Of a stretch of DNA of 64,000 bases, positions 3,682 to 61,780 are shown piece after piece; within the stretch, counting starts at the first letter, position 1, and every line of letters starts with the position of its first letter. Source of the stretch: a virus (lineage: Duplodnaviria; Caudoviricetes); the IMG/VR virus record IMGVR_UViG_3300042397_003635; one strand, 5' to 3'. The translations under genes were made by a program, and so were the position numbers. The notes beneath the pieces were generated by a model that did no database searches, was not told the DNA's origin, and saw nothing but the letters and a program-made list of their open reading frames with translations.

Positions 3682-3921
3682 TTAAGCTGTAGGTTCTTCT
3701 AGCATTTGAAGACCTTCTTCCCCTTGACCAGGTTCAACTGCAGGCTGTTCCATACTAGGTGCCATAGCTGGTTCAGCTTGAGGCATCATAGGCTCTTCCA
3801 TTGGTTGCTCTTGAGCAATTGGCATCTCTGGTTGCATCTCTGGTTGCATAGCTGGCATTGCATCAACTTGAGGTTGATCTTTTGCTACGAACTCATCGAA
3901 ACTCATGATACGATTATCCAT
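3682..3921 (-). CDS. Small acidic Pro/Met/Glu-rich protein with CTS-like N-terminus
   Basis: MDNRIMSFDEFV; TATAAATA 23 nt upstream. Confidence 0.65.
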   Translation of the reverse strand: MDNRIMSFDEFVAKDQPQVDAMPAMQPEMQPEMPIAQEQPMEEPMMPQAEPAMAPSMEQPAVEPGQGEEGLQMLEEPTA

Positions 3922-3969
3922 TGTTTTTCGGTTTTATTTTTGTTATTTATACGCCAGGAAAAAAGAAAA

Positions 3970-3987
3970 AGGGCCGAAAGGCCCTTT
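3970..3987 (-). terminator. Intrinsic terminator hairpin
   Basis: AGGGCC-GAAA-GGCCCT followed on the minus strand by a long T run. Confidence 0.75.
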
Positions 3988-4010
3988 AAAAAATGTTGAT
4001 TTGCGTAATA

Positions 4011-4394
4011 TTAGAATCCTTGTTCACGACGTAATTGAGCTTCGTCATGATCCATTTGAATTTTAGTCATTCTGTCCATTTCCTCATCACTAATAGATTT
4101 ATTAAATACAATCCTAGGGTACCAATATCTATCATCATCACTATCAAATTCATTATATGATTGATCTTTGTCAACTGAATATCCTTGAGATTCAACCCAT
4201 TGCATCATTTGCGAAAATTCTTCAGGATGAATATCGCCTCTAACCTGAATAGTAATTTTACCATGAGTAGAATACGTATCAGAGTAAGCTCTAACACCAA
4301 ATTGCTCACTAAAGTCCTTACCTAATTGTTCTTCTTGATATTCTCCATATGATTCGGTGATATATTGACCAAATGGCTTAATATGTTTTGACAT
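4011..4394 (-). CDS. Hypothetical protein with CTS-like N-terminus
   Basis: MSKHIKPFGQYITE; GATAAATA upstream. Confidence 0.7.
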   Translation of the reverse strand: MSKHIKPFGQYITESYGEYQEEQLGKDFSEQFGVRAYSDTYSTHGKITIQVRGDIHPEEFSQMMQWVESQGYSVDKDQSYNEFDSDDDRYWYPRIVFNKSISDEEMDRMTKIQMDHDEAQLRREQGF

Positions 4395-4459
4395 TATTTA
4401 AAAATAATTTTTATTATTTATCTGAAAAGAAAAAAGGAGAATCTTTCGATTCTCCTTTG

Positions 4460-4544
4460 CGGAGGCGGTAGGATTCGAACCTACGGTACCTTGCGGTACA
4501 ACAGTTTTCAAGACTGCCGCGATCGACCACTCTGCCACACCTCC
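4460..4544 (-). tRNA. trnS: tRNA-Ser(TGA)
   Basis: Cloverleaf GGAGGTG.., loop CTTGAAA, long variable arm, TTCGAAT T-loop. Confidence 0.95.
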
Positions 4545-4557
4545 AATTAAATATAAC

Positions 4558-4785
4558 TTACCTATTTACTATCATTTCATGCATTCGGTTAAGATCAGAG
4601 TTATCATATATTAGGATCTTTTCATCTCCAACTCGACCGACTGCCCTTAATCCGCAACCTTCACAAATAATTCCGTCTTGATAGTGTTCATCCATCAGAC
4701 TACCAAAAATTTGATCTGTGTCGATGTCTGGTGGAAACTCATCTCCCCACATTTCAGGGGCGCATTTGTCACAAAATTCTGCCAT
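4558..4785 (-). CDS. Small hypothetical protein with two CxxC motifs
   Basis: CDKC...CEGC. Confidence 0.6.
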   Translation of the reverse strand: MAEFCDKCAPEMWGDEFPPDIDTDQIFGSLMDEHYQDGIICEGCGLRAVGRVGDEKILIYDNSDLNRMHEMIVNR

Positions 4786-6787: not shown

Positions 6788-7345
6788 TTATCCCAATTCA
6801 TAAAATTTTTCAAGAGCTGCTTGTATTCTGTCCGAAATGGATGGATCAGCTTGTTCAGCAATATCTGCAAGAATTGCAATACCATTTACGACCTTTTCGT
6901 AACCTGGTAAATAGGTAACGTTTTTATCCTTTTTGTACATTCTTAATATATCAATTAGGGTATTTTCAATAAAACCTGCAATTGCTCCTGAATTAACGTT
7001 CATTGGGTCTTCTCCATCTGGAGAAATTATTTCAGCATATTGCCTAACTTCTTCTCCAATTTCTGCGATTTCTTCAGCATGAGATTTATTGTCATGGTAA
7101 ACATCTGCCTTTTTGGTTTTTGTAATAAGATCGATTGGAACTCTAACAATCTTTTTACTAGAATCTAGGAGTTCAATTTTTGCAAAATTTGCATCCATAT
7201 CAATAACTTGACCAGGTCCTCTGTAACTTGTTACATAGTCGCCAGGTTCGATTTCAGGATTTTCTTCATTTCTTTGAAACTCTGCATCTGGATCTTGCAT
7301 AAATCTATCAAGATCAAAGTCTTCGTATATCTTAATATATTTCAT
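6788..7345 (-). CDS. Hypothetical protein with CTS-like N-terminus
   Basis: MKYIKIYEDF; small SH3-like stretch (GDYVTSYRGPGQVID). Confidence 0.7.
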   Translation of the reverse strand: MKYIKIYEDFDLDRFMQDPDAEFQRNEENPEIEPGDYVTSYRGPGQVIDMDANFAKIELLDSSKKIVRVPIDLITKTKKADVYHDNKSHAEEIAEIGEEVRQYAEIISPDGEDPMNVNSGAIAGFIENTLIDILRMYKKDKNVTYLPGYEKVVNGIAILADIAEQADPSISDRIQAALEKFYELG

Positions 7346-7745
7346 CGTACTTAATAACTAATTCTCCAAAAACTTCAATTTTTCCAACCAATTTTTGGAA
7401 AGCAGTTTGGTCAATTTTAACAGAACTTCTAGTTAAATAGAGCTCCTCAACTAATTGATTATACTCTTTAACTGCTGAATCGCGATCTGCTTTAGTCCAG
7501 CCCTTCATCGCCTTTTTGTAATATGGTAATTTAACAACAAAGTGGTGGTGAGTTAGCATAGCATTTCCGCCTCTTTCCTTTGCGCCTTCTGCTATTTTAG
7601 TAGCGCCCATTAGTCGAGATTCGCTAAACTCTTTAAATTTTTGGTCCAATGCTTCAGTTGAGTTAACTTTAGGTTTTTCTTCAGCCTTAGCTTCAAGTTT
7701 AGCCTCATTAATAAATTCGCTAAACGTGTTAATTTGGTTCTTCAT
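7332..7745 (-). CDS. Hypothetical protein with CTS-like N-terminus
   Basis: MKNQINTFSEFINEA; GATAAATA just upstream. Confidence 0.7.
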   Translation of the reverse strand: MKNQINTFSEFINEAKLEAKAEEKPKVNSTEALDQKFKEFSESRLMGATKIAEGAKERGGNAMLTHHHFVVKLPYYKKAMKGWTKADRDSAVKEYNQLVEELYLTRSSVKIDQTAFQKLVGKIEVFGELVIKYDEIY

Positions 7746-7795
7746 GTAGTTATTTATCTAAAACAAAAAAGGACTGAATTACTTCAGTCCAATTG

Positions 7796-7877
7796 TACCC
7801 CCTAAGAGACTCGAACTCTTACACCTTTCGGCACTAGATCCTAAGTCTAGCGTGTCTACCAATTCCACCAAAGGGGC
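7796..7877 (-). tRNA. trnL: tRNA-Leu(TAG)
   Basis: Loop CTTAGGA, long variable arm, canonical T-arm. Confidence 0.95.
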
Positions 7878-7882
7878 AGGAA

Positions 7883-8140
7883 TTATTTCTTATATTTTAT
7901 AATTTTAATTTGAATACTATCTCCCACTCTAACTGCGTTTCTGGATGTGTAGATTCGACCACAATCTAATTTAACTCTCCATTCTGGATCAGTTTGTAGT
8001 GTGTGTTTTTCTCCAACTTGAAAATACTCGACTTCAGTTGCAACGCAAGTTTGTTCTGTTACTTCACCAATTACTTCGCTTCCGCAACTCGTAATTAAGC
8101 CTGTAAAAATTAAACCAATTATAAAATATATCTTTTTCAT
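7883..8140 (-). CDS. Small lipoprotein
   Basis: MKKIYFIIGLIFTGLITS-C lipobox; track start (8167) overlaps tRNA-Arg so moved to 8140. Confidence 0.65.
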   Translation of the reverse strand: MKKIYFIIGLIFTGLITSCGSEVIGEVTEQTCVATEVEYFQVGEKHTLQTDPEWRVKLDCGRIYTSRNAVRVGDSIQIKIIKYKK

Positions 8141-9946: not shown

Positions 9947-10260
9947 TAGCCCTTTGGTTTAAGTATACTACTAAAAATTTGAGTAAGTCGATTCAGTCTC
10001 CACTCTCTCTTTTTTTCTTCGATTGTTTTAGGTTCTTCCCCTAAGTTTGAATAGACATTACTATTTGTACCATATTGATATCGAAATGCATCAAAATATA
10101 CTTGATGCAAATGAACCGGAATGGTATTAAAGTCTGCAATACATTCAATTGGTAAAGAGGTTCCGCTACCAGCAATAGAGATACTGCTTTTAATTGTAAC
10201 TTTACCTGAGCCTTTCGTGGTTAGGTGACCAGAATCTGTATTAATTGTTAGTGTGCTCAT
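9946..10260 (-). CDS. Hypothetical protein
   Basis: Stop/start overlap with neighbours. Confidence 0.6.
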   Translation of the reverse strand: MSTLTINTDSGHLTTKGSGKVTIKSSISIAGSGTSLPIECIADFNTIPVHLHQVYFDAFRYQYGTNSNVYSNLGEEPKTIEEKKREWRLNRLTQIFSSILKPKG

Positions 10261-10462
10261 ATGCTTTTGCTTCGTGAAAATAATATCCTGAACTTACTTT
10301 ACCACCTATATCCCAATTCATTTCTGCTTCCCAATGGTAAACTTTATTTTTCTTATTAATTGAAGTAATAGTAACAAAAGTCAACCCATATTCTTCTTTA
10401 TCATAATCGATTGCCTCTAGTTTATCTCCAACTTTAAATATTGGTTCTATATTATTGCTCAT
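10241..10462 (-). CDS. Hypothetical protein
   Basis: Tightly packed ORF. Confidence 0.6.
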   Translation of the reverse strand: MSNNIEPIFKVGDKLEAIDYDKEEYGLTFVTITSINKKNKVYHWEAEMNWDIGGKVSSGYYFHEAKAYEHTNN

Positions 10463-10730
10463 AATCTGATACTTTAAGACCCCATTGCATATCGACCCAG
10501 CTCATATCAATTTCAGCGAGCTTTCTGGTGCGATGCCTATTATTTTTAAGTAGAACTTCAACTCCCCATTCAATCCATTGGGAGCGCTGTTCCATTGTCA
10601 TAGTCCAATCCCAAAACCAATTGTCCTTGCGATCAACCACATCTTCATACTTAACATCATGACCTGCAATCTCAAACATTTTGTCGATAAGGATCTTGGC
10701 CATTTCTTCTGGACTCTTCTTCTTTGCCAT
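10452..10730 (-). CDS. Hypothetical protein
   Basis: Tightly packed ORF, Trp-rich. Confidence 0.6.
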   Translation of the reverse strand: MAKKKSPEEMAKILIDKMFEIAGHDVKYEDVVDRKDNWFWDWTMTMEQRSQWIEWGVEVLLKNNRHRTRKLAEIDMSWVDMQWGLKVSDYEQ

Positions 10731-10731
10731 T

Positions 10732-10995
10732 TTACAGTGATTGAATTTGTGCTAAAATTGTAGTCACTTCAGCTTCGCATAGGTGACCTAGTACATCGCT
10801 GGTTACTGGCGTATCATAGGTAATATGGCCGTCTTTACCAAATACTGCAAGTTCGTATAATCCATTTTTTCCTCCATACGAGAAAGGTGTCTTAACTACA
10901 CTTGCACCATAGCCATTGTCAAACTTGATCCTAGCTTGAACTCCACCCATTCCATTTGGGTGATCCATAAATACTAAATTTTCAAATGTTATCAT
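10732..10995 (-). CDS. Conserved phage hypothetical protein
   Basis: NGYGASVV...YGG..GLYELAV pattern familiar from phage small proteins. Confidence 0.65.
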   Translation of the reverse strand: MITFENLVFMDHPNGMGGVQARIKFDNGYGASVVKTPFSYGGKNGLYELAVFGKDGHITYDTPVTSDVLGHLCEAEVTTILAQIQSL

Positions 10996-10998
10996 TTC

Positions 10999-11238
10999 TT
11001 AAAAATTAAATGGTTCGCCATCTACCTTAACTGCAATAATATCCTTGTAGTTAGATAAACTTTGAATATACTTTTTAGGATTCTTAACCTTATCATAAGA
11101 TAGGGTTTTTCCATTATTGTAGGTAATTTCAACAACTGACCCGCCTGGAGTCAAGCTTAAATTATTTGTTCTAAATTGATCAGAGACATTTAGTGTTCTA
11201 CTTACTTGCATATATCGTTTTAAATTTGCTGGGTTCAT
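10999..11238 (-). CDS. Hypothetical protein
   Basis: Tightly packed ORF. Confidence 0.6.
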   Translation of the reverse strand: MNPANLKRYMQVSRTLNVSDQFRTNNLSLTPGGSVVEITYNNGKTLSYDKVKNPKKYIQSLSNYKDIIAVKVDGEPFNF

Positions 11239-11244
11239 ATTAAA

Positions 11245-11625
11245 CTATTGTCCGCAACCGCAATCTGCATCCTCTGATAGAGGACCTTCAATTGGTGGTT
11301 CACTTGGTTTATAAAATTGTTGATTACGCTCCCAAAGTTCGTCTCCAGTAATATCTGTTTGGCCTTCTTCATCAATGAATCGAATTGACCAATTGCCTTC
11401 GCCGTATCTTTGGTTAAGCTCATCAATTCTTTCAGGTCGGCCTTCAATCAAATCTCCCTTTGCAAAGAGATAGTTTGAACACACATGAGAATAGAGAACT
11501 TCTCCCTCTTCGGTCACAACTACAAATTGTGCATCCTCTGTTTGTCTAATACCTGGATAAATGTATAAATTCATATTCTTAAATTGAATGTAAGATTCCC
11601 CAAATGACGCCTGCTGCCCATGCAC
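11245..11625 (-). CDS. Hypothetical protein
   Basis: ORF; real start possibly MNLYIY. Confidence 0.6.
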   Translation of the reverse strand: MHGQQASFGESYIQFKNMNLYIYPGIRQTEDAQFVVVTEEGEVLYSHVCSNYLFAKGDLIEGRPERIDELNQRYGEGNWSIRFIDEEGQTDITGDELWERNQQFYKPSEPPIEGPLSEDADCGCGQ

Positions 11626-11686
11626 TCATGACCAATATAATCAAAACGTCTCTGCCTGTAATTTTATTTTTCATAGTAATATTATA

Positions 11687-11998
11687 CTAAAATTTTTCTG
11701 GCTTTTGCCAAGGTTTATTGTATTTTTCTTCCCAATATTTTCTATACTCTCGCACATTAATCATGTTAATTGTATATTGCCAATATTCAGTCTCATACCA
11801 AATAGTTACATGTAGCACTAAGCTAGATGGTGGAACATAATTCTCTTTAGCCCATTTGAATAACTGCTTAGTATTTCCCTTTTGTCTAATTTTTTTTGCA
11901 AACGTTGGAAAATCACAATCCCAAATAGTAGGATATGGGGTCAGTATACCTGAATACCCCAATCCCCTATATCCTATATTGTATGCTACTTGTTTCAT
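11687..11998 (-). CDS. Hypothetical protein
   Basis: Stop/start overlap with RNA ligase gene. Confidence 0.55.
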   Translation of the reverse strand: MKQVAYNIGYRGLGYSGILTPYPTIWDCDFPTFAKKIRQKGNTKQLFKWAKENYVPPSSLVLHVTIWYETEYWQYTINMINVREYRKYWEEKYNKPWQKPEKF

Positions 11999-13125
11999 TA
12001 GTGACTATCGCCAACTTCCCAATTTTCTGCATAGATTAAGTAATCTGGATTAATTACTTTTGCAACTTTGCTTCTATCTCCAGTATGGTGTTTTACAACA
12101 ACTCCTTCATGAGGTACTTTAGTTCCAAAGATAAAATTATCAAAGACATACATATCTTCAATTTCTTTATTCCAATCTCCTACATAAAGTACATCAACAT
12201 AAGGTAGGTCCATTTCAATTCCAACAAAATTAAAGGCCTCGTCAGTTGAACAGTATTTGCCATTGATTTCCAAGTCAAATCCTGCAAATTCAATTTCTTT
12301 TAGACCATAGTCATAATTCTTTTGAATACCTGCTCCATAGATTTCTCCATATAGAACAACGCCAATTCCAATACCATCTGGGAATCTTTCGGGATCCTTG
12401 ACAAACTTCCATAAAACCTGTTTAAGATTATACTTTGCCGCAATATCATACCAGACATTAGTGTCGTAGAAGCCCTGAGAGTCTGATCCTTTTTCTACAT
12501 TATGCGAACCTACTACGAATTCGTAATCGACCCACTTTGCACCAAAGAATTTCTTTACCTTATCGAATAGAGATAATTTGTTTTTCTTTACAATACCATA
12601 TCGAGCATTGGTTCCATGGATCTTACGAGTGATCTCAACCCAATCATCTTCAGTAAAAATTCCTGGTACATTCTTTGCATTTGGAAATTTGTAATAGATA
12701 TGGAAGTTTGGATTTTCTGAGTATCTGATCTTTTTACCAGAACTCAATTGAACTTGCTTAACCGGTGGTTCATATTTCCAAATATCCATTGCATACATCA
12801 TGTCCTTACCTTCATAGTAATTTTCCATGAATGGAACATGTTTAATTGGAATGATTAGACACTCTGAATATACTCCACGTAATTTTACAGTACGAACTCT
12901 ACCGCCTTTACGTAAATAATTTGTAACATTTAGGCTGTCAGACAACTCGACTGGAATTACTGCATCAGTTGTTGCAACTACTACAAGATCCCCATTCGAG
13001 TATTGTCCCTTTTGGATAATTGCTTGCCATCCACTGACTAATGCCAATTCAATAGCATCTGCTCCTGGAATAGGTACGATTTCACCAATACTTGCTACAA
13101 AGCAAACTGAATTATTATTTTCCAT
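11998..13125 (-). CDS. RNA ligase (Rnl2 / DRB0094-like family)
   Basis: N-terminal PIPGADAIELA..GWQ..KG domain; motif I KIHGTN; YGEIYG; PHEGVVV; AKVINPDY. Confidence 0.88.
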   Translation of the reverse strand: MENNNSVCFVASIGEIVPIPGADAIELALVSGWQAIIQKGQYSNGDLVVVATTDAVIPVELSDSLNVTNYLRKGGRVRTVKLRGVYSECLIIPIKHVPFMENYYEGKDMMYAMDIWKYEPPVKQVQLSSGKKIRYSENPNFHIYYKFPNAKNVPGIFTEDDWVEITRKIHGTNARYGIVKKNKLSLFDKVKKFFGAKWVDYEFVVGSHNVEKGSDSQGFYDTNVWYDIAAKYNLKQVLWKFVKDPERFPDGIGIGVVLYGEIYGAGIQKNYDYGLKEIEFAGFDLEINGKYCSTDEAFNFVGIEMDLPYVDVLYVGDWNKEIEDMYVFDNFIFGTKVPHEGVVVKHHTGDRSKVAKVINPDYLIYAENWEVGDSH

Positions 13126-18575: not shown

Positions 18576-18656
18576 ATTTAACTAAGTTATTATACTAAGT
18601 TTATTAACTGGGTTATCAGTCGAAGATAAATATTTATAGAAATAACTCAATTATTA

Positions 18657-19568
18657 ATGGGAAATCACATTAAAAATTTTAAAGGTTGGAAGAACGTTTC
18701 AGAAGCTGGTTCTTGGGGAGAGTGGATGCAATCATTAGTTACTGGCGTAGGAGCAGAGACTCCAGAATTAGGAGCAGATGCAAAGGCTGCATTAACCGGC
18801 GTAAAGACATTAGCTGGTACTGTTGTAGATAAAATTGCAGATACACTAGGAATAGAAACTGACAAAAAGGAAGAACCAAAATCTTCTAAAGCTTTTAAAT
18901 CAAATAGCGGAAAAATTCCAGAAGAACACATTGCCGCATTAGAAGCAGCCATGGATAGACATGGAATTACAAATGAATTTGCAAGAAAGGCTATTCTTGG
19001 AGTAGTATCAAAGGAATCTCCAGATCTAAGACCTGAAGTTGACTATAGTAAAACTTCCAACTCTAGAATTAGAGAAGTATTTGGATCAAGAGTTTCAGAA
19101 TTATCAGATTCTCAACTTGATGCATTAAAAGCTAATCCAACTAAGTTTTGGGATAGAGTATATGGACCAACCGATCCAACTGGAAGAGGCTCAAAATATG
19201 GGAATTCTGAACCGGGCGATGGCGAAAGATATAGGGGTCGCGGATTTAATGGAATTACATTTAAAAGTAATTATATCAATCTTCAAAAAGTATACAATGA
19301 AATTGGTAAACTCGAAACTAATGATACAATCGATATAGTTGATAATCCAGAACAGTTGGAAGATCCAGCGATTGCAGCAGAATTTGCAATTCTTTATTAT
19401 ATCGATAGTTTTAAACGAGCAAATAAAAACCTAAATAACTTTAGTGATTTAGAATCTGCCGTAACTGATTATGTTAGATCAACTGCGGGTTGGGGTTCAG
19501 ATATTACAAGCGGAGTTAAGGCTCAGGGTTTTGCTAGAGCTCTAGACTATGCACAATCATTAGCATAA
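18657..19568 (+). CDS. GH19-like muramidase with CTS-like N-terminus (candidate virion-associated PG hydrolase)
   Basis: MGNHIKNFKGWKNVSE; ILGVVSKES, GNSEPGDGERYRGRGFNGITFKSNY; GATAAATA at 18625-18632. Confidence 0.8.
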   Translation: MGNHIKNFKGWKNVSEAGSWGEWMQSLVTGVGAETPELGADAKAALTGVKTLAGTVVDKIADTLGIETDKKEEPKSSKAFKSNSGKIPEEHIAALEAAMDRHGITNEFARKAILGVVSKESPDLRPEVDYSKTSNSRIREVFGSRVSELSDSQLDALKANPTKFWDRVYGPTDPTGRGSKYGNSEPGDGERYRGRGFNGITFKSNYINLQKVYNEIGKLETNDTIDIVDNPEQLEDPAIAAEFAILYYIDSFKRANKNLNNFSDLESAVTDYVRSTAGWGSDITSGVKAQGFARALDYAQSLA

Positions 19569-19777: not shown

Positions 19778-19852
<75 letters not shown>

Positions 19853-19894
19853 CTATAATATTTTCAAGATGTGATTGTTGGAAAGTAAAAAAGA

Positions 19895-20750: not shown

Positions 20751-21038
20751 ATCAATAAGATTCAAAGAACTTGTTTGTGTTACTTATTTATTATACCTAC
20801 TTTATTTGATTTTGGTTTAAATAAGTAAAAAAAAATTAAGGGTTTGAAAAGAGATCCGAAAAAATTTTCGCTAAAAGAGTGTTAAATGTTGATAGGTGCC
20901 ATTTTTGAATTTCTTAAATCTTGAATTTTAAATTCAGAGTCCCTGTCTTAACATCAATTGGATTGCTAGAATAAGTATGTAAATGACGTGCAGTCATATG
21001 CTACCGATTCCTCTTCACTCTTTTCTCTCCCCTATATT

Positions 21039-21815: not shown

Positions 21816-21820
21816 ATTTG

Positions 21821-44697: not shown

Positions 44698-44720
44698 AAT
44701 AGGGAGTCTGGGCTCCCTAT
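44698..44720 (-). terminator. Intrinsic terminator
   Basis: AATAGGGAG-TCTGG-GCTCCCTATT with A tract on + strand. Confidence 0.65.
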
Positions 44721-44740
44721 TTAAATTATAATAGATTAGG

Positions 44741-45949: not shown

Positions 45950-45955
45950 AGTTTT

Positions 45956-48442: not shown

Positions 48443-48542
48443 ATGATGTCAATAGATTTTTTTCAATATTATCTATTGAGAGCTGTCTATCAAGATCAGT
48501 AAATTTAGATTAACAAATTATTATCAAATTGGAATATTAGTG

Positions 48543-49810: not shown

Positions 49811-50350
49811 TTAATCACGTTTTATTTCAATTTTATGTTTTTCACCATTTGCCATTGAATAAACTGCATGACTTGGATGGATTTGATATTCCTTACCTTT
49901 AAATTGATCCGCATATTTTTTACCCATACCTTTTTTAATATAGGCGACTGTCATATGAGGATGATAGTCTGGAAAGTCTGATGTAAAAGGAAACTGCTTT
50001 AACTTAGTATTAAGTTCTGATAATTGATCGCCTTTAATATCAAACTTTAAGACATCATACTTATCATTCTCAAATAGAGATGGGTTATGTGCCTTAACTG
50101 TTGTGTAAGTAGGCTCGCTAACAATTGGTTCAACCTTATCTAAGCCAACATTATTATGTAGACCATAAAGTAGTGTTACATGAGGTTCATCCTCTAACCC
50201 AAATGTTTGATCTTCTGGATCCACATACACATCATCGCGATCGATTTGACCATGCAATTCTGACATTTGCGGAAAATCTAGATAAAGCATTGCACATGAA
50301 AAATCATAAGCTGCTTTCTTTTCATTAATAAAATCTTTAATTGTTTTCAT
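49811..50350 (-). CDS. 2H phosphoesterase, T4 gp57B/Acb1-like, with CTS-like N-terminus
   Basis: PHVTLLYG and PHMTVAY (two HxT motifs); MKTIKDFINE. Confidence 0.8.
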   Translation of the reverse strand: MKTIKDFINEKKAAYDFSCAMLYLDFPQMSELHGQIDRDDVYVDPEDQTFGLEDEPHVTLLYGLHNNVGLDKVEPIVSEPTYTTVKAHNPSLFENDKYDVLKFDIKGDQLSELNTKLKQFPFTSDFPDYHPHMTVAYIKKGMGKKYADQFKGKEYQIHPSHAVYSMANGEKHKIEIKRD

Positions 50351-53520: not shown

Positions 53521-54285
53521 TTATGCAATAGGGTTTCCGTCAGAGTGACGTTTACGATAGGCTTCCTTGCCTAAGTCAATTAGTTTTTCAATATGGCCTG
53601 AATTTCTTAAAGCTTTAAACGTTAGGTTCTCAACTGAGAACTCTCCCCGTTCACTCAGACCATCCTTACGAGCTTTCATGATTTTCTCTTTAAGCCAATC
53701 AACCCTTGAAATTAGAGGCTCCTGAATTAACCCGAAATCGCTTGTATCAATTTCCTTAGCTAACATTTCAATCTCAGTTTGTAGAGCTTCAACTCTGCGA
53801 CTAACGTCCTTAGGATCAATTGAAGGTGGGGTAAAGCGAGGAATTGTAATCCATTCGTCCTTTAGGAGAGAATAGAGTCCACTGGCAATATGCGGTTCGC
53901 TAATATCTTGTGCATAGAGTTCAACATCATGATCTAAGATCCTAACTGGATGACGCTGATTCCACATAAATCTCTGACCGTCTAGAGCTTTTTTAACTAG
54001 AGCTGTATCTTCATTGATCTTTGTAAAATCAAAAAGTACATGCACATCAAAATCAGAGTATTTGGTCCAGTTATAATTGGCAAGAGATCCAGTTAAGTGG
54101 ATATCTTCAATTGGAATCTCAACCTTAAGGGCTTCATAAAAATCCTGAGCAATTACAAGTAGTCTGTTACGTAGAGTTGGATGTATTTTCGGTGCAGAGT
54201 TTACATCAGCGATACCCCAAACTCTTGGATTAAGTTTAGGTTGATAAAATGGTTCTAGGTCTTCAAATAGTTTAATGTATCGCAT
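53521..54285 (-). CDS. Pol-beta-superfamily nucleotidyltransferase with CTS-like N-terminus
   Basis: LTGSLANYNW..YSDFDVH (GS...DxD), VELYAQD; MRYIKLFEDL. Confidence 0.82.
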   Translation of the reverse strand: MRYIKLFEDLEPFYQPKLNPRVWGIADVNSAPKIHPTLRNRLLVIAQDFYEALKVEIPIEDIHLTGSLANYNWTKYSDFDVHVLFDFTKINEDTALVKKALDGQRFMWNQRHPVRILDHDVELYAQDISEPHIASGLYSLLKDEWITIPRFTPPSIDPKDVSRRVEALQTEIEMLAKEIDTSDFGLIQEPLISRVDWLKEKIMKARKDGLSERGEFSVENLTFKALRNSGHIEKLIDLGKEAYRKRHSDGNPIA

Positions 54286-54292
54286 GCGTAAA

Positions 54293-55642
54293 TTAATACA
54301 TTATTAAATTTTCTTTTGCAATTGCAACTGAGTTCATTTCTAATATTCCCCATTGACCATCTCCAATTGCAGTATAGAATATTACAAATGGCATACCTGT
54401 TTTTATTCCTTGCTGATCGGTTCCATATCCATATCTGTTTAGATATCTACTGTTTTCGGTTGAACACGTAACAGTATTGCCTTCATCAGATGGAGCAAAT
54501 ACTTTTCCTGATGGAACATTAAATGAAATCGAATAGGTTCTTTCTTTACCATATGAATTTTGAAGAGTATCAGCTTCACCCATTTCAATTGTTGCAGTAA
54601 GATTAGCAACTTCATCTGAACTCAATAATTCACCGCCTAAATATTCTTTAGCCCATGCTTGTAGTGCGCCTATTTCAATTTTTTGGAAATCAGATTTTCC
54701 ATTTTTATCTGGTCTAAATGGAGTAATTGCGCTAGATTCAATTTTATGGTTGCTAGCATCTCCAAAAAAGAATTCCAATAGATTATCAGTTAAGACTGAA
54801 TAGGTTTTAGACGTTTCGCCGCTTGATCCAACTTGACCTGGAGTTTCTGTTCCTGGCGTAGTAGTTCCTGGAGTAACAACACCTGGAGTTTTTACATCGT
54901 ATGGAGTAGCACTAGTTGTTATTTTAACATAACGACCGCCTCTAGGCAAGCCAACCTTAAATGAGGTTGTAATTTTACCTGAAATAAATGTAACCAAATC
55001 TGGAGTAAGTTTACCGGTTGCAGTTAAGGCCTTAACTATTTCTTCCTTCATTTTAATTGCGCGATTCTCTGCAAGAAATTCATTGCTTGGTTTAGCACCA
55101 CCATAATTATGGTCTAGTTTAGTATAACCAGCTGGAATATCTAGAGTTGCATTTGCAATATCGGCTGCTCCTTCAATTGCAATTGATTTGAAATTGTTTT
55201 TTGCTTGTGTTGCATCTAACCTAAAATATTCAACTAGGTTTGTAATAAAACCATCAAATAAAACTTTAGCGGTTTGAGCAACTGTCCAGTTTGGTGTAAT
55301 AATATTATCTGGGTAAGGAAAATCTGTTCCTTTAAAATCAACCGATGGGGTAACAGTCGGTGGTGCAACTTGTGGTTGAGTTGTTACAGCTGGTGTTGAT
55401 TTAGGAGGGGTAACACTGGACCATTTAGATCCACGTTTAGCAGCTGAGCCGAATGATATACCAAGTGCTCCTTCTTTTCCGGATTTTTCAGCAATTCCAA
55501 TTATACGTTGACCGCTTCCAGCCAAGCCTAATTTTGGGAATTTGCCACTTAGTTTTCCTCGCCAATCAATAAAAAGACTTGCATCTTGTTCAAAAATTCT
55601 ATTTTCGCTTAACCAATTTTGGTATCTTAAAATATTTGCCAT
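54293..55642 (-). CDS. CTS-like N-terminus plus degenerate OmpA-C-like domain
   Basis: MANILRYQNWLSE; DFPY...SIAIEGAAD...NEFLAENRA...YVKI. Confidence 0.65.
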   Translation of the reverse strand: MANILRYQNWLSENRIFEQDASLFIDWRGKLSGKFPKLGLAGSGQRIIGIAEKSGKEGALGISFGSAAKRGSKWSSVTPPKSTPAVTTQPQVAPPTVTPSVDFKGTDFPYPDNIITPNWTVAQTAKVLFDGFITNLVEYFRLDATQAKNNFKSIAIEGAADIANATLDIPAGYTKLDHNYGGAKPSNEFLAENRAIKMKEEIVKALTATGKLTPDLVTFISGKITTSFKVGLPRGGRYVKITTSATPYDVKTPGVVTPGTTTPGTETPGQVGSSGETSKTYSVLTDNLLEFFFGDASNHKIESSAITPFRPDKNGKSDFQKIEIGALQAWAKEYLGGELLSSDEVANLTATIEMGEADTLQNSYGKERTYSISFNVPSGKVFAPSDEGNTVTCSTENSRYLNRYGYGTDQQGIKTGMPFVIFYTAIGDGQWGILEMNSVAIAKENLIMY

Positions 55643-55669
55643 TAATAATTATGGTTTGTTTGTAGTTAT

Positions 55670-56155
55670 TTATCTTACAGGTTCAGGTCCTGTTGAGTAG
55701 AGGATAACACATACACTCCAGTCCTTGGTTTCAATTCGGCTATAACCAAATCTAACTTCAGTAAATTGACTGACTCCTCTAGTCATAATATCCCAATGTT
55801 TATCACTAAGTTTAAAATAGTAGATTGCAGATTTGGTTGAAGCTGGAATACCTGTATAGTTAGGATCCCCAGCCCAGCACACTTCATAGATTCCTAGGCC
55901 TGCATCTCCAAACTTTTCTGCACGTTTCATTGGAGTCCTGGTTTGAGGACGATCCTCTTCATAGTGGCCAGCCTTTTTACCAGAAATTAGATAGTTTGCA
56001 TGAAGTGCAGCAGCTGAATCTAGTTTAGAGGTTCTGGTTACCTTTGTAGATGGAGCAATTAGACCTCTAACGAGGGTATAAACTGAATCCCTTTGAACCT
56101 GTGCAGTTGCAGCAGAACCAGTTGCAATAAGAATTAAGATTATCAGCTTCTTCAT
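55670..56155 (-). CDS. Exported CAP/SCP-domain protein
   Basis: SPI then Q; LDSAAALHANYL...GHYE...RAEK..IYEV...SDKHWDIM. Confidence 0.7.
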   Translation of the reverse strand: MKKLIILILIATGSAATAQVQRDSVYTLVRGLIAPSTKVTRTSKLDSAAALHANYLISGKKAGHYEEDRPQTRTPMKRAEKFGDAGLGIYEVCWAGDPNYTGIPASTKSAIYYFKLSDKHWDIMTRGVSQFTEVRFGYSRIETKDWSVCVILYSTGPEPVR

Positions 56156-56248: not shown

Positions 56249-56812
56249 ATGAAAAGGTTAATTATTTCTTCTGTATTTGCACTATTATCAACTGGTGCAT
56301 ATACTCAATCTGGAACTCCGATAAGCGTTACGGAAGATAAAGAGTTATCTAAATATGTATTCAATCATATTAATAACTATCGATCAACTCTACCTGAAAA
56401 ACCTTTTATTTGGACAGAATTCTGGTATAGCTCAGCCAAGAGGTGGAATAATGAAGTTTCAAAAAATGGTAATTGGGGCCACAATCGAGGAAAGGAGTGG
56501 GAAGACTTTAGAGGACAGGAAATGATTGTAGCTGTTCCAATTTTATCTGAAGCAGAAGATAATTACCAATATATTGCAGAGACTGCCCTAACCAAATGGT
56601 TACAATCTAAATATCATGTTAGTGGAATTGTTGCACCAAGACAAGAAAAGGTTGGCGATACTGCAACTGTTCAGTTTGGAGATGCTCAAGTTACTGGAGT
56701 ATTGTTATGTAGGTACGGAGCTATCTCTGTAAATATAATAAAATACCCTAACTACAAAATCGCATATATCGTTTTCCAGTTAGGGTATTATGGGAACAGT
56801 AGTGGTCTTTAG
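56249..56812 (+). CDS. Exported CAP/SCP-domain protein
   Basis: SPI then Q; VFNHINNYR...WGHN..QEMI...KWLQSKYH. Confidence 0.65.
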   Translation: MKRLIISSVFALLSTGAYTQSGTPISVTEDKELSKYVFNHINNYRSTLPEKPFIWTEFWYSSAKRWNNEVSKNGNWGHNRGKEWEDFRGQEMIVAVPILSEAEDNYQYIAETALTKWLQSKYHVSGIVAPRQEKVGDTATVQFGDAQVTGVLLCRYGAISVNIIKYPNYKIAYIVFQLGYYGNSSGL

Positions 56813-58005
56813 GAGTTTTTTCCTTGAGGATTTGTAATTGCTGTCCAGGCGCTTAGAGTTCTAGTTGAGTCCAATCCAGTAGTTTGCTTAGGTTTTGATA
56901 AAATAGTGTCTAACTCAGTTTTAGTGAAAAGCTCAGCAGGTTTGCCTACTTTTTCAACGGTTACTGTAAGTTTAGCATACTGTGCATCATCTCCACCATT
57001 TTGAATAACTGCTTTAGTTGTTGTAGGAACGCCTAATCCTTTTAATTTTGATACAATTGCGTCAGCTCTACCAAATGCTAATGTTGCATTTCCAGATTCG
57101 CCCGCAGTCTTTGGAAAATACTGAGTACCTGCTGGATGGTTTGCTGGATAACCGCTTTTTCCATCTGCTGCTTTACGATCACCGGATGCACTAGCCTCAA
57201 CTTGAATTGTTTTAATTTTAGTACTTTTATCGGCCAATAGTGCTTGTAATTCAGCAATTGCTGAATCTAATTCTTTAGTATTAGATAAGGTAGTTTTTCC
57301 AGTTTCAAACATTGTACCAGGTAATGCCTTAACAATAGTTTTTCCAGTTGCTGGAACTTCCCAAGTGGTAGTCGTTGCAACTTCTTTAGACACAGCTGAC
57401 GTTGTAGCCTTAGTTCCATACAATTTAAATTTAAATCCTGTTACAGGTTTTTCCCAGGTTAGAGTACCTTCTGGACTTACTTCTAAGATTACTCCACCTC
57501 CGGGTAAACCACCCTTTTGATATTTTATTCGATACGCAATTTCAGATAAAGATTTATTATTGCAATATAGTGCAATATTCTCATATTTTGAAGCTTGATC
57601 AGGATTTCCTGGATCGCTTATTAACTCATTTGTGAAAACTCCAGTTGTAAGAACTTCGGTAGGCTTTTCTGGGTGGGGCATTAGTTTAATATCTCCACTT
57701 TTATTAATCCATGTAGCTGGAGTTAAATCAGTAATAGTTTGTTTAATACCAATAAACAAATTAGTTAAAATTGCAGCAGCGTGTTCAGGGGTGACTGAGA
57801 AAACTATGCCGTTTCTTATTAAAATCGATTTAATTTTTTCATAATTTAAATTGTCTTCTCCTCCAAAATATTGCCGTAATCCTTCGTACATGCCGTCTGA
57901 GTCAAAGGCCTGCGTGATGTAACTCATTTCTATATCTCCATGAGGACCAAATTCATTGATTGCTTGAGACTGCAACCAAGATTCAAATAGTTTAATTGTT
58001 GCCAT
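56809..58005 (-). CDS. CTS-like N-terminus plus degenerate OmpA-C-like domain
   Basis: MATIKLFESW...INE; MFETGKTTL...IQVEASAS...GNATLAFGRADAIVSKL. Confidence 0.68.
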   Translation of the reverse strand: MATIKLFESWLQSQAINEFGPHGDIEMSYITQAFDSDGMYEGLRQYFGGEDNLNYEKIKSILIRNGIVFSVTPEHAAAILTNLFIGIKQTITDLTPATWINKSGDIKLMPHPEKPTEVLTTGVFTNELISDPGNPDQASKYENIALYCNNKSLSEIAYRIKYQKGGLPGGGVILEVSPEGTLTWEKPVTGFKFKLYGTKATTSAVSKEVATTTTWEVPATGKTIVKALPGTMFETGKTTLSNTKELDSAIAELQALLADKSTKIKTIQVEASASGDRKAADGKSGYPANHPAGTQYFPKTAGESGNATLAFGRADAIVSKLKGLGVPTTTKAVIQNGGDDAQYAKLTVTVEKVGKPAELFTKTELDTILSKPKQTTGLDSTRTLSAWTAITNPQGKNS

Positions 58006-58079
58006 TTTAAAATTGTTAAATTTATTTGTAGTTATTTATCTTGTACTAAAAGCTATGATTTAGTTAATTGATCTTAGCC

Positions 58080-59048
58080 TTAACTTCCATGGCCTAACGC
58101 CTTGGCTAGTGCTGCTTTATTGGCTGCACTGACGCCGACCGCACCCTTCGGTAACATCCGTACTGGCTGTTTTACTGCAGTTGCATCTTGAGCCGATCGA
58201 CTAAAGTCTGTGTTATGAATTGGCATTTTTAAATATGAACCAAAGTTAGAACCAGTATTAGATGAATAAAAAGAATTAAAGGTTGCAGCTGTTTGTTTGA
58301 CCGTATTGTGTATAACCTGTGCTGATTGATTTACGGCAGCATCTGTTGCAAAAACAGTTACTAGGCCTTTACCGCCTGCCTTTGTAATAAGCTCAGCAAG
58401 CTCTCCACTCAGTGGCTGTGACCCTGCTCCAGATGGATTTAATCTAGCTAATAGTTCTAAAAAGGTTTTAATATAACCGGGTAGAGTTTGAGTTATAAAT
58501 CTCCTAAGCCAACCAAGGACATCAGTTATTCCAAGTCTTCCACTTAACCATGAAATAACTTGACCAAATCTTGATTGAGATAGAGTTGTTATAACATTTC
58601 CGATAACCCTAAGCGCACTGTTTTTGAGTGCAATAATACCATCACCCACACTACGAGCAGCCAAGCGAGCCGCGGCAATTGTAGTTGGTGAGGCTCCACC
58701 CCTAAGAGCAGTAAAAATTTGATTGAGTCCAGTCTTAAGCGTGGTTACTATATTAAGCGGATCAAATATTGCAACAAATTGAATAAGTCCACTGAGCGAA
58801 AGTTTAATAATATCATTGAGTTGAGTCTTTGCATTTTTAAAACTAGCCTCAACAAAATAGGAAAGCATGTTAATAACATCAATTACCATACCCGAACCTG
58901 GAACAACCACATCGGCAACTGCTGCTGAAATATCACCAATTGCATGTAGAACCGTTGAAAGATCAAGATCAAATTCAAAGATTGGCACGGCTCCCGGACT
59001 AAGTTGACCGGTTGCACACCACTCTTCATATAGCATAAGGTGTTTCAT
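58080..59048 (-). CDS. CTS-like N-terminus, amphipathic/hydrophobic helical protein
   Basis: MKHLMLYEEW; IGDISAAVADVVVPGSGMVIDVINMLSYFVEA resembles pre-toxin TG-like helices. Confidence 0.7.
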   Translation of the reverse strand: MKHLMLYEEWCATGQLSPGAVPIFEFDLDLSTVLHAIGDISAAVADVVVPGSGMVIDVINMLSYFVEASFKNAKTQLNDIIKLSLSGLIQFVAIFDPLNIVTTLKTGLNQIFTALRGGASPTTIAAARLAARSVGDGIIALKNSALRVIGNVITTLSQSRFGQVISWLSGRLGITDVLGWLRRFITQTLPGYIKTFLELLARLNPSGAGSQPLSGELAELITKAGGKGLVTVFATDAAVNQSAQVIHNTVKQTAATFNSFYSSNTGSNFGSYLKMPIHNTDFSRSAQDATAVKQPVRMLPKGAVGVSAANKAALAKALGHGS

Positions 59049-59383
59049 CGGGTTAATTCGCTAATTGATTTAAGAATATCATTAATTGTTTGGATTTTAC
59101 CGCTCTTTACTCTTGCCTTAAGTTCCTTTTCTAATTGAGCAAATGAGGCTCCACTCTTATCGGCTTTGCGAATTGCATCAATGCCTTCATCAACAAGATT
59201 AAGAAGGTCCGCTTCTTCAAGTTTTTGTTTGCCACCAACCCGCTTTGCGATATTTAAGAAAATTTGACGTAGACCAGCAAAACCAATTATAGCAAGTGCA
59301 ATTGCTGCTTGAAGAGTTATTTCATAACCTTCATTAATTTGGCTAGTCTCCCTCCAGCTATTAAAGTTATTTACGTGTTTCAT
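59045..59383 (-). CDS. CTS-like N-terminus, single TM helix
   Basis: MKHVNNFNSW...INE; AAIALAIIGFAGL. Confidence 0.7.
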   Translation of the reverse strand: MKHVNNFNSWRETSQINEGYEITLQAAIALAIIGFAGLRQIFLNIAKRVGGKQKLEEADLLNLVDEGIDAIRKADKSGASFAQLEKELKARVKSGKIQTINDILKSISELTR

Positions 59384-59399
59384 ATACTTTATTTATTTC

Positions 59400-60272
59400 C
59401 TAGAAGCCGGTGCCGATTGAAAAAAGAATAGGGTTACTCTTTTTAAAACCTTGACTGTTTTTTTCAATTGTACTATTAAATCTTAAACCGCTATTTAAGA
59501 TAAAGTTTTTTCCTATTTTCCAATCTGCCTGTATACCATAATAGGCATCCAAATTAAAATCTGCTAGGTAACTAATATTAAGAGTACCATCACTAAATGA
59601 CCTGTGAATATCACTAACTAAAATAATTTGTGGTGAAAGGGTCACCCGTTTCTTTTTAATTGGATAAGAATAGACAATCATGGCACGGGTTGTCAGCTGT
59701 CTAGATGGTGGCATTATCGGATAGATGTTAGCGACCCAATTACCCAGCGAATCAACTGTGTATTCGCCTTGCCATGGGCCTTCCCACTCGCCCCAAAATG
59801 TTTGGCTTGCAGTTAAGTTATAGCCAATTGTGCCAAATCTATGGGTCTTAATCATATCAATAAATGATACATTAATATTTTTCTGAAAATCAAAATCAAA
59901 CGAACCAACTACCTGTAGAGTTGTGCTACGCCAATCGCTCTTTCGGGTAAGGCCATAACCTATGCCATAATATTTCCAGCCTGGATTAATTGATAGGATT
60001 CCAGCATGATTCCACTCCCCACTAGTCGAAGCCCTGTTAAGGGTTAAGTTAAGTGTAGTTGATACCTTACGACCCACAACACCAAGCGAAAGATCTGAAG
60101 TATTTAGGACGTCCTTTGAAAAATCAATATAGGCTTGAGTTGTTCCCAATCCCAACCATTGAGAGTTAAATTCAAATAGTTCTTGTGGTGTCAGCTTTAG
60201 GGTATCGGCTGGGGTTTGTGCGGTTGCGGCTAGGCCAGTCACCAATAGTAGTATGGTTAATAAAGTTTTCAT
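59400..60272 (-). CDS. Exported outer-membrane beta-barrel-like protein
   Basis: SPI then Q; alternating strands, terminal FSIGTGF. Confidence 0.7.
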   Translation of the reverse strand: MKTLLTILLLVTGLAATAQTPADTLKLTPQELFEFNSQWLGLGTTQAYIDFSKDVLNTSDLSLGVVGRKVSTTLNLTLNRASTSGEWNHAGILSINPGWKYYGIGYGLTRKSDWRSTTLQVVGSFDFDFQKNINVSFIDMIKTHRFGTIGYNLTASQTFWGEWEGPWQGEYTVDSLGNWVANIYPIMPPSRQLTTRAMIVYSYPIKKKRVTLSPQIILVSDIHRSFSDGTLNISYLADFNLDAYYGIQADWKIGKNFILNSGLRFNSTIEKNSQGFKKSNPILFSIGTGF

Positions 60273-60278
60273 AATAGT

Positions 60279-60716
60279 TTATAATCTTGAACCTAATTCA
60301 TTAAATGCGCCAGTTGCAATAGCTCGGCCATCTGCAACTGCTTGTGACCAACGATCCTTAACCAAGAATCCATTTGACAAATAGTTGTCTAGATAATTAT
60401 GGATTGGACAGCCTCGACCAGTTTGTTCCTGCCACCAACTATCTAATTCGATAAAGGCTTCTTCTGGTCCAGCAATAGCAACTGTTTGTGCAATTGGCTG
60501 GGTCCTCGATCTAAATACTTTAACAACAAGTACAACCAATCCAAGCTCAACCAACTTTTCTTTAAACTCTGCTTCATCGACTAGGCCACTTAGGAGTTTA
60601 CCATGCAGATCAATGCGTTTAGTTGTAATACCACCTTCACCAAGACCTAGATCTTGAAGCCTTTGCCAAGTAGCAAAGGAAAATGATTCGGATATAGTAT
60701 GGCGATTAATCAACAC
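60279..60716 (-). CDS. Hypothetical protein
   Basis: RLQDLGL motif shared with 60706-61380. Confidence 0.65.
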   Translation of the reverse strand: MLINRHTISESFSFATWQRLQDLGLGEGGITTKRIDLHGKLLSGLVDEAEFKEKLVELGLVVLVVKVFRSRTQPIAQTVAIAGPEEAFIELDSWWQEQTGRGCPIHNYLDNYLSNGFLVKDRWSQAVADGRAIATGAFNELGSRL

Positions 60717-61380
60717 GGCGCTCGCTAAATAATTGGTCTATCTTTTGTACAACTTTCCAAGGATCGCTTGAGTCAATTGACTCTTCCCTTACTGGATCCT
60801 TGCTTGAGTGCCACAAGATTCGTAGAGTACCAGGCTCTGCACCATAGTCGCTAACTGTAAAGTTATAGTAGTTAGGATATTTCTTTTGGTGACGAGCTCC
60901 CATTCGCGAAAGATAAGTCGACTCTGCTTCCCAACGTACCAATTCAATATTAAGAGAGCCGTCCGCTGATTTGCTCCACTTCCAGCGTCTGCGTTGAATA
61001 AGATCCTCAACCGCATTTAGGGCTGAGTCAGCAAGACCCAAGTCCTCTAGTCGGCGCTTGTCAATATGTTGCTTTTGAATCTGATCCCACTGTTCGGGGT
61101 CAAAGCCCTCATTTTTCTTTAATTGACGTTTAACCTCTTCACGAACCTTTTCCATTTTTTTGGCATAGGCTGGATTATCTCCACGATTAAAGACAATTTG
61201 CTGGTTTAGGGAACCAGTAATTTTACGCATATCACCCTTACGGCTAGAGATAAGCCACTTTGCTAGGGCCTTGATTCCAAGATCGCGGAATCGGCCATTG
61301 GCATCGGGTGCATCTGAGTCTTTCCACTCTGGGCGCCTTGCCTCATTAATCCAAGCTGTGAATGTTTTAATTGAAGACAT
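60706..61380 (-). CDS. Hypothetical protein with CTS-like N-terminus
   Basis: MSSIKTFTAWINEA; internal RLEDLGL. Confidence 0.72.
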   Translation of the reverse strand: MSSIKTFTAWINEARRPEWKDSDAPDANGRFRDLGIKALAKWLISSRKGDMRKITGSLNQQIVFNRGDNPAYAKKMEKVREEVKRQLKKNEGFDPEQWDQIQKQHIDKRRLEDLGLADSALNAVEDLIQRRRWKWSKSADGSLNIELVRWEAESTYLSRMGARHQKKYPNYYNFTVSDYGAEPGTLRILWHSSKDPVREESIDSSDPWKVVQKIDQLFSERRVD

Positions 61381-61387
61381 ATTCTAT

Positions 61388-61780
61388 TTAGATTTTTGTA
61401 AATTTAACACCAACTCCTAGGGTAGTATGGTCAACTGATTTACCATTAGCAAGATCAGGTAAGATTTTGGTTAGATCGTCATACTCTACCGTATATGGAT
61501 CAACGCCGCCCTGTACAGTACGACCAATTTGCATGCCGCCGTCTCCTAATTTCTTAAGCCAATTAAAATTAATTGCATATTGGTTATTAAGAGCAACTCC
61601 AATTATTTTGTAATTAAATACTTTGCCAGCACCGTTCTTAACTGCAATTGCATTGCCGCCTTTGTCCGCTGCCTTTGAAATAGTAGCCTTTACTGGATTT
61701 GCCCAGCTAATTGACCCTGGTCCAGGTACAGCTACATCAGCATCTTCCCGTAACCAACCTTCAAACAATTTTACCCACAT
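61388..61780 (-). CDS. Hypothetical protein with CTS-like N-terminus
   Basis: MWVKLFEGWLRE; GATAAATA at 61804-61811. Confidence 0.7.
   Translation of the reverse strand: MWVKLFEGWLREDADVAVPGPGSISWANPVKATISKAADKGGNAIAVKNGAGKVFNYKIIGVALNNQYAINFNWLKKLGDGGMQIGRTVQGGVDPYTVEYDDLTKILPDLANGKSVDHTTLGVGVKFTKI

Follow-up and report, generated by a model that had tools for sequence, protein, structure and literature searches.

A shared N-terminus on otherwise unrelated phage genes

The DNA analysed here, a 64-kb stretch of phage sequence (IMG/VR record IMGVR_UViG_3300042397_003635; referred to at its full length as the window), has a GC content of about 36%, carries most of its genes on the minus strand and shows no Shine-Dalgarno sequences for its genes. 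We were concerned with a short N-terminal peptide, called the tag below, which an earlier sequence-only reading had noticed at the start of about 15 proteins and had likened to the capsid targeting sequence of phage T4. All 15 N-termini quoted in that reading were found in the window exactly as quoted, 14 of them on the minus strand and one (18657-19568) on the plus strand; where a gene is named by a single coordinate, this is, as in that reading, the low end of its open reading frame (ORF). Every one of the 15 tags starts at the first ATG of its maximal ORF, so no upstream extension is possible, and the protein bodies behind the tags proved to be unrelated by BLASTP, as had been claimed, with a sole pair below E = 0.1 (59045 vs 18657, E = 0.001).

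Comparisons were made with two relatives. The first, G001 (= L003; IMG/VR, 114 kb), is about 95% identical to the window and colinear over all of it, with a further 51 kb upstream; the second, G002 (217 kb, estimated 84% complete), has a protease that is 92% identical.

The consensus of the tag is M-K-H-I-K-x-F-x-x-[F/W]-[I/L]-[N/T]-E, with the general form [ILV]-x-x-[FY]-x-x-[FWY] and, in most cases, [ILV]-x-E after it. Among the 15 tags, 13 have the aromatic pair [FY]xx[FWY], the tag of 53521 has Leu at the second position and that of 49811 has one aromatic only. An [ILV]xE within 18 residues of the start was found in 10 of the 15: it follows the aromatic pair directly in five tags, one residue later in 38670 and 5-9 residues after the pair in 56809, 59045 and 18657, and it accompanies the single aromatic in 49811. 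AlphaFold2 modelled the tag as a helix with low confidence, and since the aliphatic residue and the two aromatics are set at helix spacing, they would share one helix face. Codons at the conserved positions are mixed (TTT/TTC/TAC/TAT, TGG/TTT, ATT/GTA, GAA/GAG), which together with the exchange of Phe, Tyr and Trp indicates selection on the peptide rather than on the RNA; nucleotide-level conservation as the origin of the tag was rejected on this codon diversity.

The enrichment that had been proposed as a check on the motif was clear. The anchor [ILVM]xx[FY]xx[FWYL] occurs in the first 14 residues of 16 of the 108 called ORFs, compared with 2.7 predicted from internal positions and 4.7 +/- 2.1 (maximum 12) in 2000 shuffles of the N-termini, simple ORF counts being inflated by spurious ORFs across a tRNA array in the window. 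Clean anchor matches numbered 13 against 2.7 expected (Poisson p = 5e-6), and the strict heptad [FY]xx[FWY][ILV]xE was found at N-termini 5 times in the window, 9 times in G001 and 14 times in G002, with 0.41, 1.2 and 1.35 expected, respectively. For positions that had not been used in picking the matches, we compared N-terminal with internal anchors: Lys at -2 was present in 52% vs 6% (p = 2e-20) and Glu at +6 in 44% vs 7% (p = 5e-14), and an aliphatic residue at +4 was likewise enriched at N-terminal anchors (p = 5e-5). Met lies exactly 6 residues ahead of the first aromatic in 18 of 41 non-redundant tags. Chance as the origin of the tag was rejected on these statistics. Genome-wide, 34 of the 264 ORFs of G002 match the pattern against about 8 expected, and inspection leaves about 27 that look genuine; two more uncultured contigs, reached through homologues of the tagged muramidase described below, have 9 of 32 (L046) and 9 of 34 ORFs tagged. 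We found no account of this tag in the literature searched, which included a jumbo-phage genomics survey and a paper on phages that encode ribosomal protein bS21 (PMC9723584).

Tagged genes with recognisable domains

The four cargo identities put forward in the sequence-only reading (Acb1-like, nucleotidyltransferase, GH19 and OmpA-like) hold by Pfam, signature motifs and fold search. The only tagged gene on the plus strand, 18657-19568, encodes a GH19-type muramidase of 303 amino acids (aa) that matches phrog_181 (endolysin, E = 7e-23), with no match to Pfam PF00182. Its tag helix covers residues 8-15, with VSE at 16, and is followed by a low-confidence linker of about 70 residues and a catalytic domain from about residue 86; this domain was modelled by AlphaFold2 with a predicted local distance difference test (pLDDT) value above 90, and in the PDB it matches the SPN1S and GH19 endolysins best (probability 1.0). 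Most of the best 120 muramidase homologues match the tag pattern, usually ending in I/L-N-E, and the tagged ones span four architectures, with GH19 alone or joined to VanY, Amidase_2 or PG_binding_1. In an alignment of 44 homologues (37-83% identity), M1 and E16 are invariant, F8 is nearly so and residues 17-97 are unconserved. The window also holds an untagged paralogue at 2417-3253 (minus strand; PG_binding_1 plus Glyco_hydro_19, 278 aa, 27% identity to 18657-19568), which is probably the lysis endolysin; the two genes make a natural untagged/tagged pair.

The gene at 53521-54285 (minus strand, 254 aa, phrog_36119, N-terminus MRYIKLFEDL) encodes a Pol-beta-type nucleotidyltransferase with its signature present. 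Most of its homologues carry a canonical tag ending in I/L-N-E, and the copy in the window is a derived form without that site. Homologues also occur in T4-like cyanophages and in Caulobacter phage Cr30. The cyanophage S-CREM2 protein ORF156 matches the tagged nucleotidyltransferase by blastp at 2e-33 and has its own 7-residue leader ending in I-S-E; it was detected with 6 unique peptides in CsCl-purified virions (PMC10665884 Table 3), among virion-associated non-structural proteins that include ORF154-156 and two endolysins. A distant homologue of one tagged protein has been found in purified particles, an indirect link to packaging and the only experimental one, and, as a further likeness, so have endolysins. 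The cyanophage leader differs from the tag in having no aromatic pair, and no shared tag is described in that paper.

At 49811-50350 (minus strand, 179 aa) the leader MKTIKDFINE, with INE ending at residue 10, precedes a domain that matches PF23474 with 32.4 bits (cut-off 27, E = 9e-8). Both H57-V-T and H132-M-T are present, and we read the protein as an Acb1-like 2H phosphoesterase with predicted activity on cyclic nucleotides.

The fourth gene, 56809-58005 (minus strand, 398 aa), has the aromatic pair and INE at residue 18 (MATIKLFESW..INE) and a C-terminal OmpA/MotB-like peptidoglycan-binding fold. In Pfam, 1 of 20 family members matched OmpA, weakly and below the cut-off (E = 0.0024); a model of its C-terminal 150 or so residues matched dozens of OmpA/MotB/Pal domains with probability 1.0 and target TM-scores of 0.55-0.65. 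There is no counterpart in G001 or G002, and in G001 the corresponding slot is occupied by an unrelated gene that bears this tag too, a cassette swap that recalls the variable internal-protein loci of T-even phages. Close homologues share the tag, and distant ones (among P0364-P0383) bear two other classes of leader, one of which ends in L-N-E: a form of about 19 residues that contains ...AENMLRFG.KNL.E, and a form containing ...TEEERSRIL.... Leaders of the LAENMLRFG and EERSRIL types were found nowhere in the window, G001 or G002; the window lineage uses only one leader class, and the presence of the others on the same body suggests that they are lineage-specific address labels. The tag thus behaves as a portable module, as had been proposed, being carried by four muramidase architectures and replaced by other leaders on OmpA-like homologues.

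Tagged genes of unassigned family

Outside these four genes and one with a hydrophobic segment (59045-59383), profile searches found no recognisable family for the tagged genes, all of which lie on the minus strand. Full tags are present in 4011-4394 (127 aa, heptad FGQYITE) and 7332-7745 (137 aa, heptad FSEFINE, the closest match to YQEFIAE of T4), each with a predicted cut after residue 14. Heptads also mark 54293-55642 (449 aa, YQNWLSE, predicted cut after residue 13), for which an atlas look-up returned only an unnamed viral cluster, and two basic proteins, 61388-61780 (130 aa, FEGWLRE, predicted cut after residue 12) and, downstream of it, 60706-61380 (224 aa, FTAWINE, predicted cut after residue 13). 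In 38670-39575 (301 aa) the tag, FDKFTVNE, is predicted to be cut after residue 14 and gives way to a linker rich in Pro and Glu, and in 59045-59383 (112 aa) the aromatic pair and INE at residue 18 (MKHVNNFNSW..INE) are followed by the hydrophobic segment, which is possibly membrane-active.

The other tags have no such site close by. The gene at 6788-7345 (185 aa, tag type MKYIKIYEDF), downstream of tagged gene 7332-7745 and overlapping its end, has no canonical cut site nearby, and neither has 38409-38666 (85 aa, aromatic pair YDEW in MPKVLSYDEW), directly downstream of 38670-39575. In 58080-59048 (322 aa, YEEW in MKHLMLYEEW), downstream of 59045-59383, the first [ILV]xE is at residue 25. The gene at 3682-3921 (79 aa, FDEF in MDNRIMSFDEF, no nearby [ILV]xE) encodes a very acidic, low-complexity protein with a body isoelectric point (pI) of 4.1, and may be a core or accessory protein rather than cargo.

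Late-type promoter motifs

The observation that many tagged genes have a late-type promoter was borne out: 9 of the 15 tagged genes have ATAAATA in the 60 nt upstream, vs 5 of 93 other ORFs (Fisher p = 2e-6). The copies mostly take the form GATAAATA, as they do in front of 4011-4394 (4415-4422), 7332-7745 (7751-7758), 38670-39575 (39598-39605), 54293-55642 (55667-55674), 56809-58005 (58033-58040) and 61388-61780 (61804-61811) on the minus strand and of 18657-19568 (18625-18632) on the plus strand; 3682-3921 has the late-type promoter motif TATAAATA at 3944-3951 and 59045-59383 has AATAAATA at 59390-59397, both on the minus strand. Six tagged genes have no motif of their own, and in five of these cases the gene directly upstream is tagged and does have it. 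Over the whole window, 14 of the 24 copies of ATAAATA are within 70 nt upstream of a start on the same strand (p = 7e-12), and in G001 the variant TATAAATAAT is found about 68 nt upstream of the start codon of the protease-scaffold gene described below. From this strong association, the tagged genes are predicted to be expressed late, together with the head genes.

Head genes and scaffold repeats

It had been suggested that a gp21-like protease and a scaffold with the same motif should be sought elsewhere in the genome, and G001 proved to encode a gp21-family protease, a gp23-type capsid protein and a scaffold with the motif in tandem. The capsid protein matches Gp23 (PF07068, E = 2.5e-47) from residue 89 onward and has I-N-E at residue 52, where a propeptide could plausibly be cut. 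Directly upstream of its gene, G001 10106-12097 encodes a protease-scaffold of 663 residues with an N-terminal S77/S80 domain (Peptidase_S77, PF03420, E = 9e-12) and 8-9 tandem repeats of 14 residues, each with Y-x-x-[Y/H]-[I/L/V]-[A/G]-E. G001 as a whole has 17 strict internal heptads, of which 6 fall in this one protein. The protease-scaffold of contig L025, which is 33% identical to that of G001, has eight such heptads; small tagged genes directly precede its protease gene and also separate that gene from the capsid gene, three head-module neighbours being clearly tagged and a fourth doubtful. The cut site of the T4 capsid protein, FGSFLTE|A, fits the same heptad, which is not present in T4 gp22. 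A complex prediction with two copies of G001 protease-scaffold residues 305-445 and the first 40 residues of 60706-61380 gave a score of 0.00 with a partner pLDDT of 28 and is not evidence either way. Next to the protease-scaffold gene, a 159-aa ORF (G001 7498-7977) contains a tag-like peptide, with INE at its end, that comes after an internal Met; this points to an internal start or to a tag within the protein.

A probable prohead-core targeting propeptide

We consider it probable that the shared N-terminus is a T4-type capsid (prohead-core) targeting propeptide, greatly expanded in number and linked to a scaffold in which the tag recurs. The sequence-only reading had proposed, in addition, a payload of head-packaged proteins. 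Motif enrichment, the head genes, the promoters, portability and the cargo identities all speak for this payload; the support is partial, however: the Acb1-like protein may not be cargo, a nearby cut site is missing from a third of the tags (5 of 15), and some small acidic members may be degraded core proteins rather than proteins that are injected.

That last point leads to the alternative that survives best, in which the tag does target the prohead core and most tagged proteins are assembly or core components that, like T4 gp67, gp68 and gp22, are degraded or expelled in maturation. Several members are indeed small, acidic and of low complexity (3682-3921, whose body pI is given above, with 38409-38666 and 4011-4394 similar), tagged genes are found within the head module beside the capsid gene in G001 and L025, and the scaffold itself bears the heptad. 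Many other members, however, are folded enzymes or domains with no obvious role in assembly (GH19 muramidase, nucleotidyltransferase, 2H phosphoesterase and OmpA-like protein) and with catalytic motifs intact, most have a single predicted cut near the tag rather than many along the chain, and the tagged loci are hypervariable between near-identical genomes, unlike essential assembly genes. The S-CREM2 homologue, moreover, persists in mature virions (PMC10665884). We regard this explanation as unlikely.

Less probable still is that the tag is an amphipathic helix for membrane or envelope sorting, chaperone binding or degradation (a degron), with a convergent likeness to T4. Its hydrophobic spacing fits a short amphipathic helix, as does the low-confidence helix model, several cargoes act on the envelope, and the Acb1-like family keeps its leader in phages with no other tagged genes. 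Yet a signal or signal-arrest-release (SAR) sequence would have to be less polar than the tag, and the true signal peptides of the window look quite different; the invariant Glu, the identical heptad in the protease-scaffold, the late-type promoters in common with the head operon and the homologue in virions would all be left without explanation. The weakest candidate, an RNA-level signal in the 5′ coding region for initiation without Shine-Dalgarno sequences or for selective late translation by phage bS21, draws on a lineage that has no Shine-Dalgarno sequences, on A/U-rich first codons, on the bS21 gene of G002 lying between two tagged genes and on the proposal in PMC9723584 that bS21 phages favour late transcripts, but it is very improbable given that amino-acid class is kept while codons vary (Phe/Tyr/Trp, Ile/Val/Leu, GAA/GAG), that the signal runs for 13-18 codons to end in a protease motif and that the same heptad recurs deep inside the scaffold gene.

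Several observations count against a targeting propeptide as we propose it. Five of the 15 tags have no [ILV]xE within 18 residues. The head genes, which lie outside the window, were read from G001 (95% identical, colinear) and not from the genome of the window itself, and in the scaffold repeat the upstream Ile is two residues before the first Tyr, compared with three in the tag. Tags are at chance level in the last 50 kb of Tenacibaculum phage PTm1 (3 of 61) and in a 49-kb piece of the 462-kb phage LR756500 (1 of 46), both of which have capsids related to that of the window lineage; the tag expansion is therefore lineage-specific, and since the LR756500 scaffold has degenerate repeats, repeats and tags do not strictly co-occur. 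The S-CREM2 authors caution that some of the non-structural proteins detected in virions could be contaminants (PMC10665884). The Acb1-like protein (49811-50350) has a truncated tag with one aromatic only and no late motif upstream, and a comparable leader is retained by homologues on T4-like contigs of about 158 kb, where the neighbouring genes are untagged and resemble those of a replication region. This leader could thus belong to the protein family. The homologue in the non-T4-like Maribacter phage Molly has none. The Acb1-like protein is the weakest member and may not be cargo. Packaging, cleavage and injection of the tagged proteins are steps that we infer from sequence.

For the targeting propeptide, the course of events can be proposed as follows. 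Because the repeats of the protease-scaffold carry the tag heptad, the tag would dock in the scaffold core as a single repeat copy, late in infection, by the same helix packing that joins the scaffold repeats, and would be cut at the same kind of site. The tagged proteins would be enclosed as the gp23-type shell forms, and the protease, which probably cuts the capsid propeptide at I-N-E and every scaffold repeat likewise, would cleave the tag after Glu; fragments of the scaffold would then leave the head, mature cargo would stay inside, and this cargo would exit with the DNA at the next infection. The GH19 muramidase, the OmpA-like peptidoglycan binder and the small hydrophobic protein would act on the envelope, and the nucleotidyltransferase, perhaps with the Acb1-like 2H phosphodiesterase, in the cytoplasm before phage gene expression. 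Proteins whose tags have no nearby cut site might be targeted and left untrimmed, like T4 mutants with Asp at position 10, or might alternatively be core proteins.

A more specific idea, which we offer tentatively and would not yet call probable, is that the tag is a mimic, a single copy of the tandem repeat of the scaffold, so that the scaffold sequence would dictate the label of each lineage and cargo moving between lineages would have to swap leaders. The leader exchange in the OmpA-like family would follow from such a requirement.

Comparison with T4 and giant phages

The capsid targeting sequence of T4 is MKTYQEFIAE (10.1101/2021.01.19.427310), and suppressor analysis assigned targeting to residues 4 and 7 and processing to residues 8 and 10, gp21 cutting after L/I-x-E (PMC9026906). 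These four functional positions are the four conserved in the window tag, which adds one upstream turn (I-K). Both signals occupy some 10-14 residues at the extreme N-terminus of otherwise unrelated proteins, and both have two aromatics three residues apart, which in T4 and in five of the 15 window tags are followed directly by aliphatic-x-Glu; the two phages also have in common a gp23-type capsid protein with an S77 protease, late-type TATAAATA promoters and hypervariable tagged loci. The tag differs in that its aromatic pair starts at residue 7-9 rather than at residue 4, in often having Trp as the second aromatic and in preferring Asn or Thr before Glu. There are three tagged genes in T4 vs about 15 in 64 kb here and about 27 in the 217-kb relative, and the cargo here includes recognisable enzymes. 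Further differences are the Bacteroidetes hosts, a capsid protein less than 40% identical to that of any isolate, and a protease-fused scaffold with repeated heptads, of which T4 gp22 has none.

The giant phages phiKZ, 201phi2-1 and SPN3US (PMC9026906, PMC10052503) also have a large capsid with dozens of different head-internal proteins, N-terminal propeptides cut after Glu by a diverged gp21 homologue, and ejection of these proteins into the host, which for the window lineage we infer. They cut at S/A-x-E and have no common targeting peptide defined, whereas the set in the window lineage can be recognised by a single tag with aliphatic-x-Glu. The sequence examined showed neither a virion RNA polymerase nor nucleus-forming genes, in contrast to phiKZ-type giants.

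Head-carried proteins act before any phage gene expression and are therefore prime candidates for counter-defence and entry functions. Finding head cargo normally requires virion proteomics of phages in culture, and among the cultured or named relatives compared, no isolate with proteomics carries this tag. A recognisable tag together with a scaffold repeat would allow cargo to be listed from metagenomic sequence alone for widespread uncultured Bacteroidetes phages. If the tag does mimic the scaffold repeat, sequence could reveal all the proteins that are packaged and injected throughout a very large clade of environmental phages that have not been cultured. Among these proteins would be pre-loaded counter-defence enzymes, for example a 2H/Acb1-like nuclease and nucleotidyltransferases, and the tag accepted by a given capsid would be predictable from the repeat. 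This group would have roughly ten times the tagged genes of T4. The suggested copying of a scaffold repeat by the tag also bears on how the T4 signal is recognised, and in practice the tag would be a second, differently tuned signal for loading foreign proteins into phage capsids.

Lineage and other features of the window

Many proteins of the window have Bacteroidetes-type signal peptides. The capsid protein, as read from G001, has at most 37% identity to anything in the phage collection, where its nearest matches are uncultured huge phages, Lak phages and Tenacibaculum jumbo phages. One protein encoded in the window recurs identically on a contig of 262,644 bp, which is probably the genome size. 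Ribosomal protein bS21 is encoded by G002 and by the more distant tagged contig L046, a likeness that places the lineage in or near the bS21-encoding freshwater Bacteroidetes phages, a group of uncultured myovirus-type genomes of up to 331 kb with T4-like head genes (PMC9723584); the window lineage is probably in the same clade or a neighbour of it. The difference is that a term search of that paper turned up nothing about packaged cargo or a tag at the N-terminus. In G002, the bS21 gene (41662-41814) has tagged genes on both sides (region 41150-42432).

Positions 40000-48500 of the window had no megablast match in the phage collection. On the minus strand, a gene for a membrane transporter of the sulfate permease family (41527-42666; PF00916, E = 4e-38) is set between the genes for the topoisomerase II subunits (40191-41543 and 42666-44501) and is not present in G001, for all its 95% identity to the window. 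At 44741-48442 (minus strand), a TonB-dependent-receptor-like outer-membrane protein (828 aa, Plug plus beta-barrel) adjoins a lipoprotein-like gene of 402 aa; this pair is absent from G001 and present in L046, and an outer-membrane receptor carried by a phage is unusual. A run of large untagged genes occupies 26711-37387 on the minus strand; their products (764, 565, 644 aa and others) have signal peptides of the Bacteroidetes type, and one of these genes, 32725-34659, has the GATAAATA motif in front of it. The window has 24 tRNA genes, 18 of which form one minus-strand array at 19778-25081, with the others at 4459, 7795, 8153, 8444, 14276 and 18487. Towards the end, 62938-63573 (plus strand) encodes a 211-aa protein with a MerR-type helix-turn-helix (HTH) and a serine resolvase domain, similar to TnpA of IS607, with TATAAATA 12 nt ahead of its start, and the GC content climbs to 45% in the final 4 kb.

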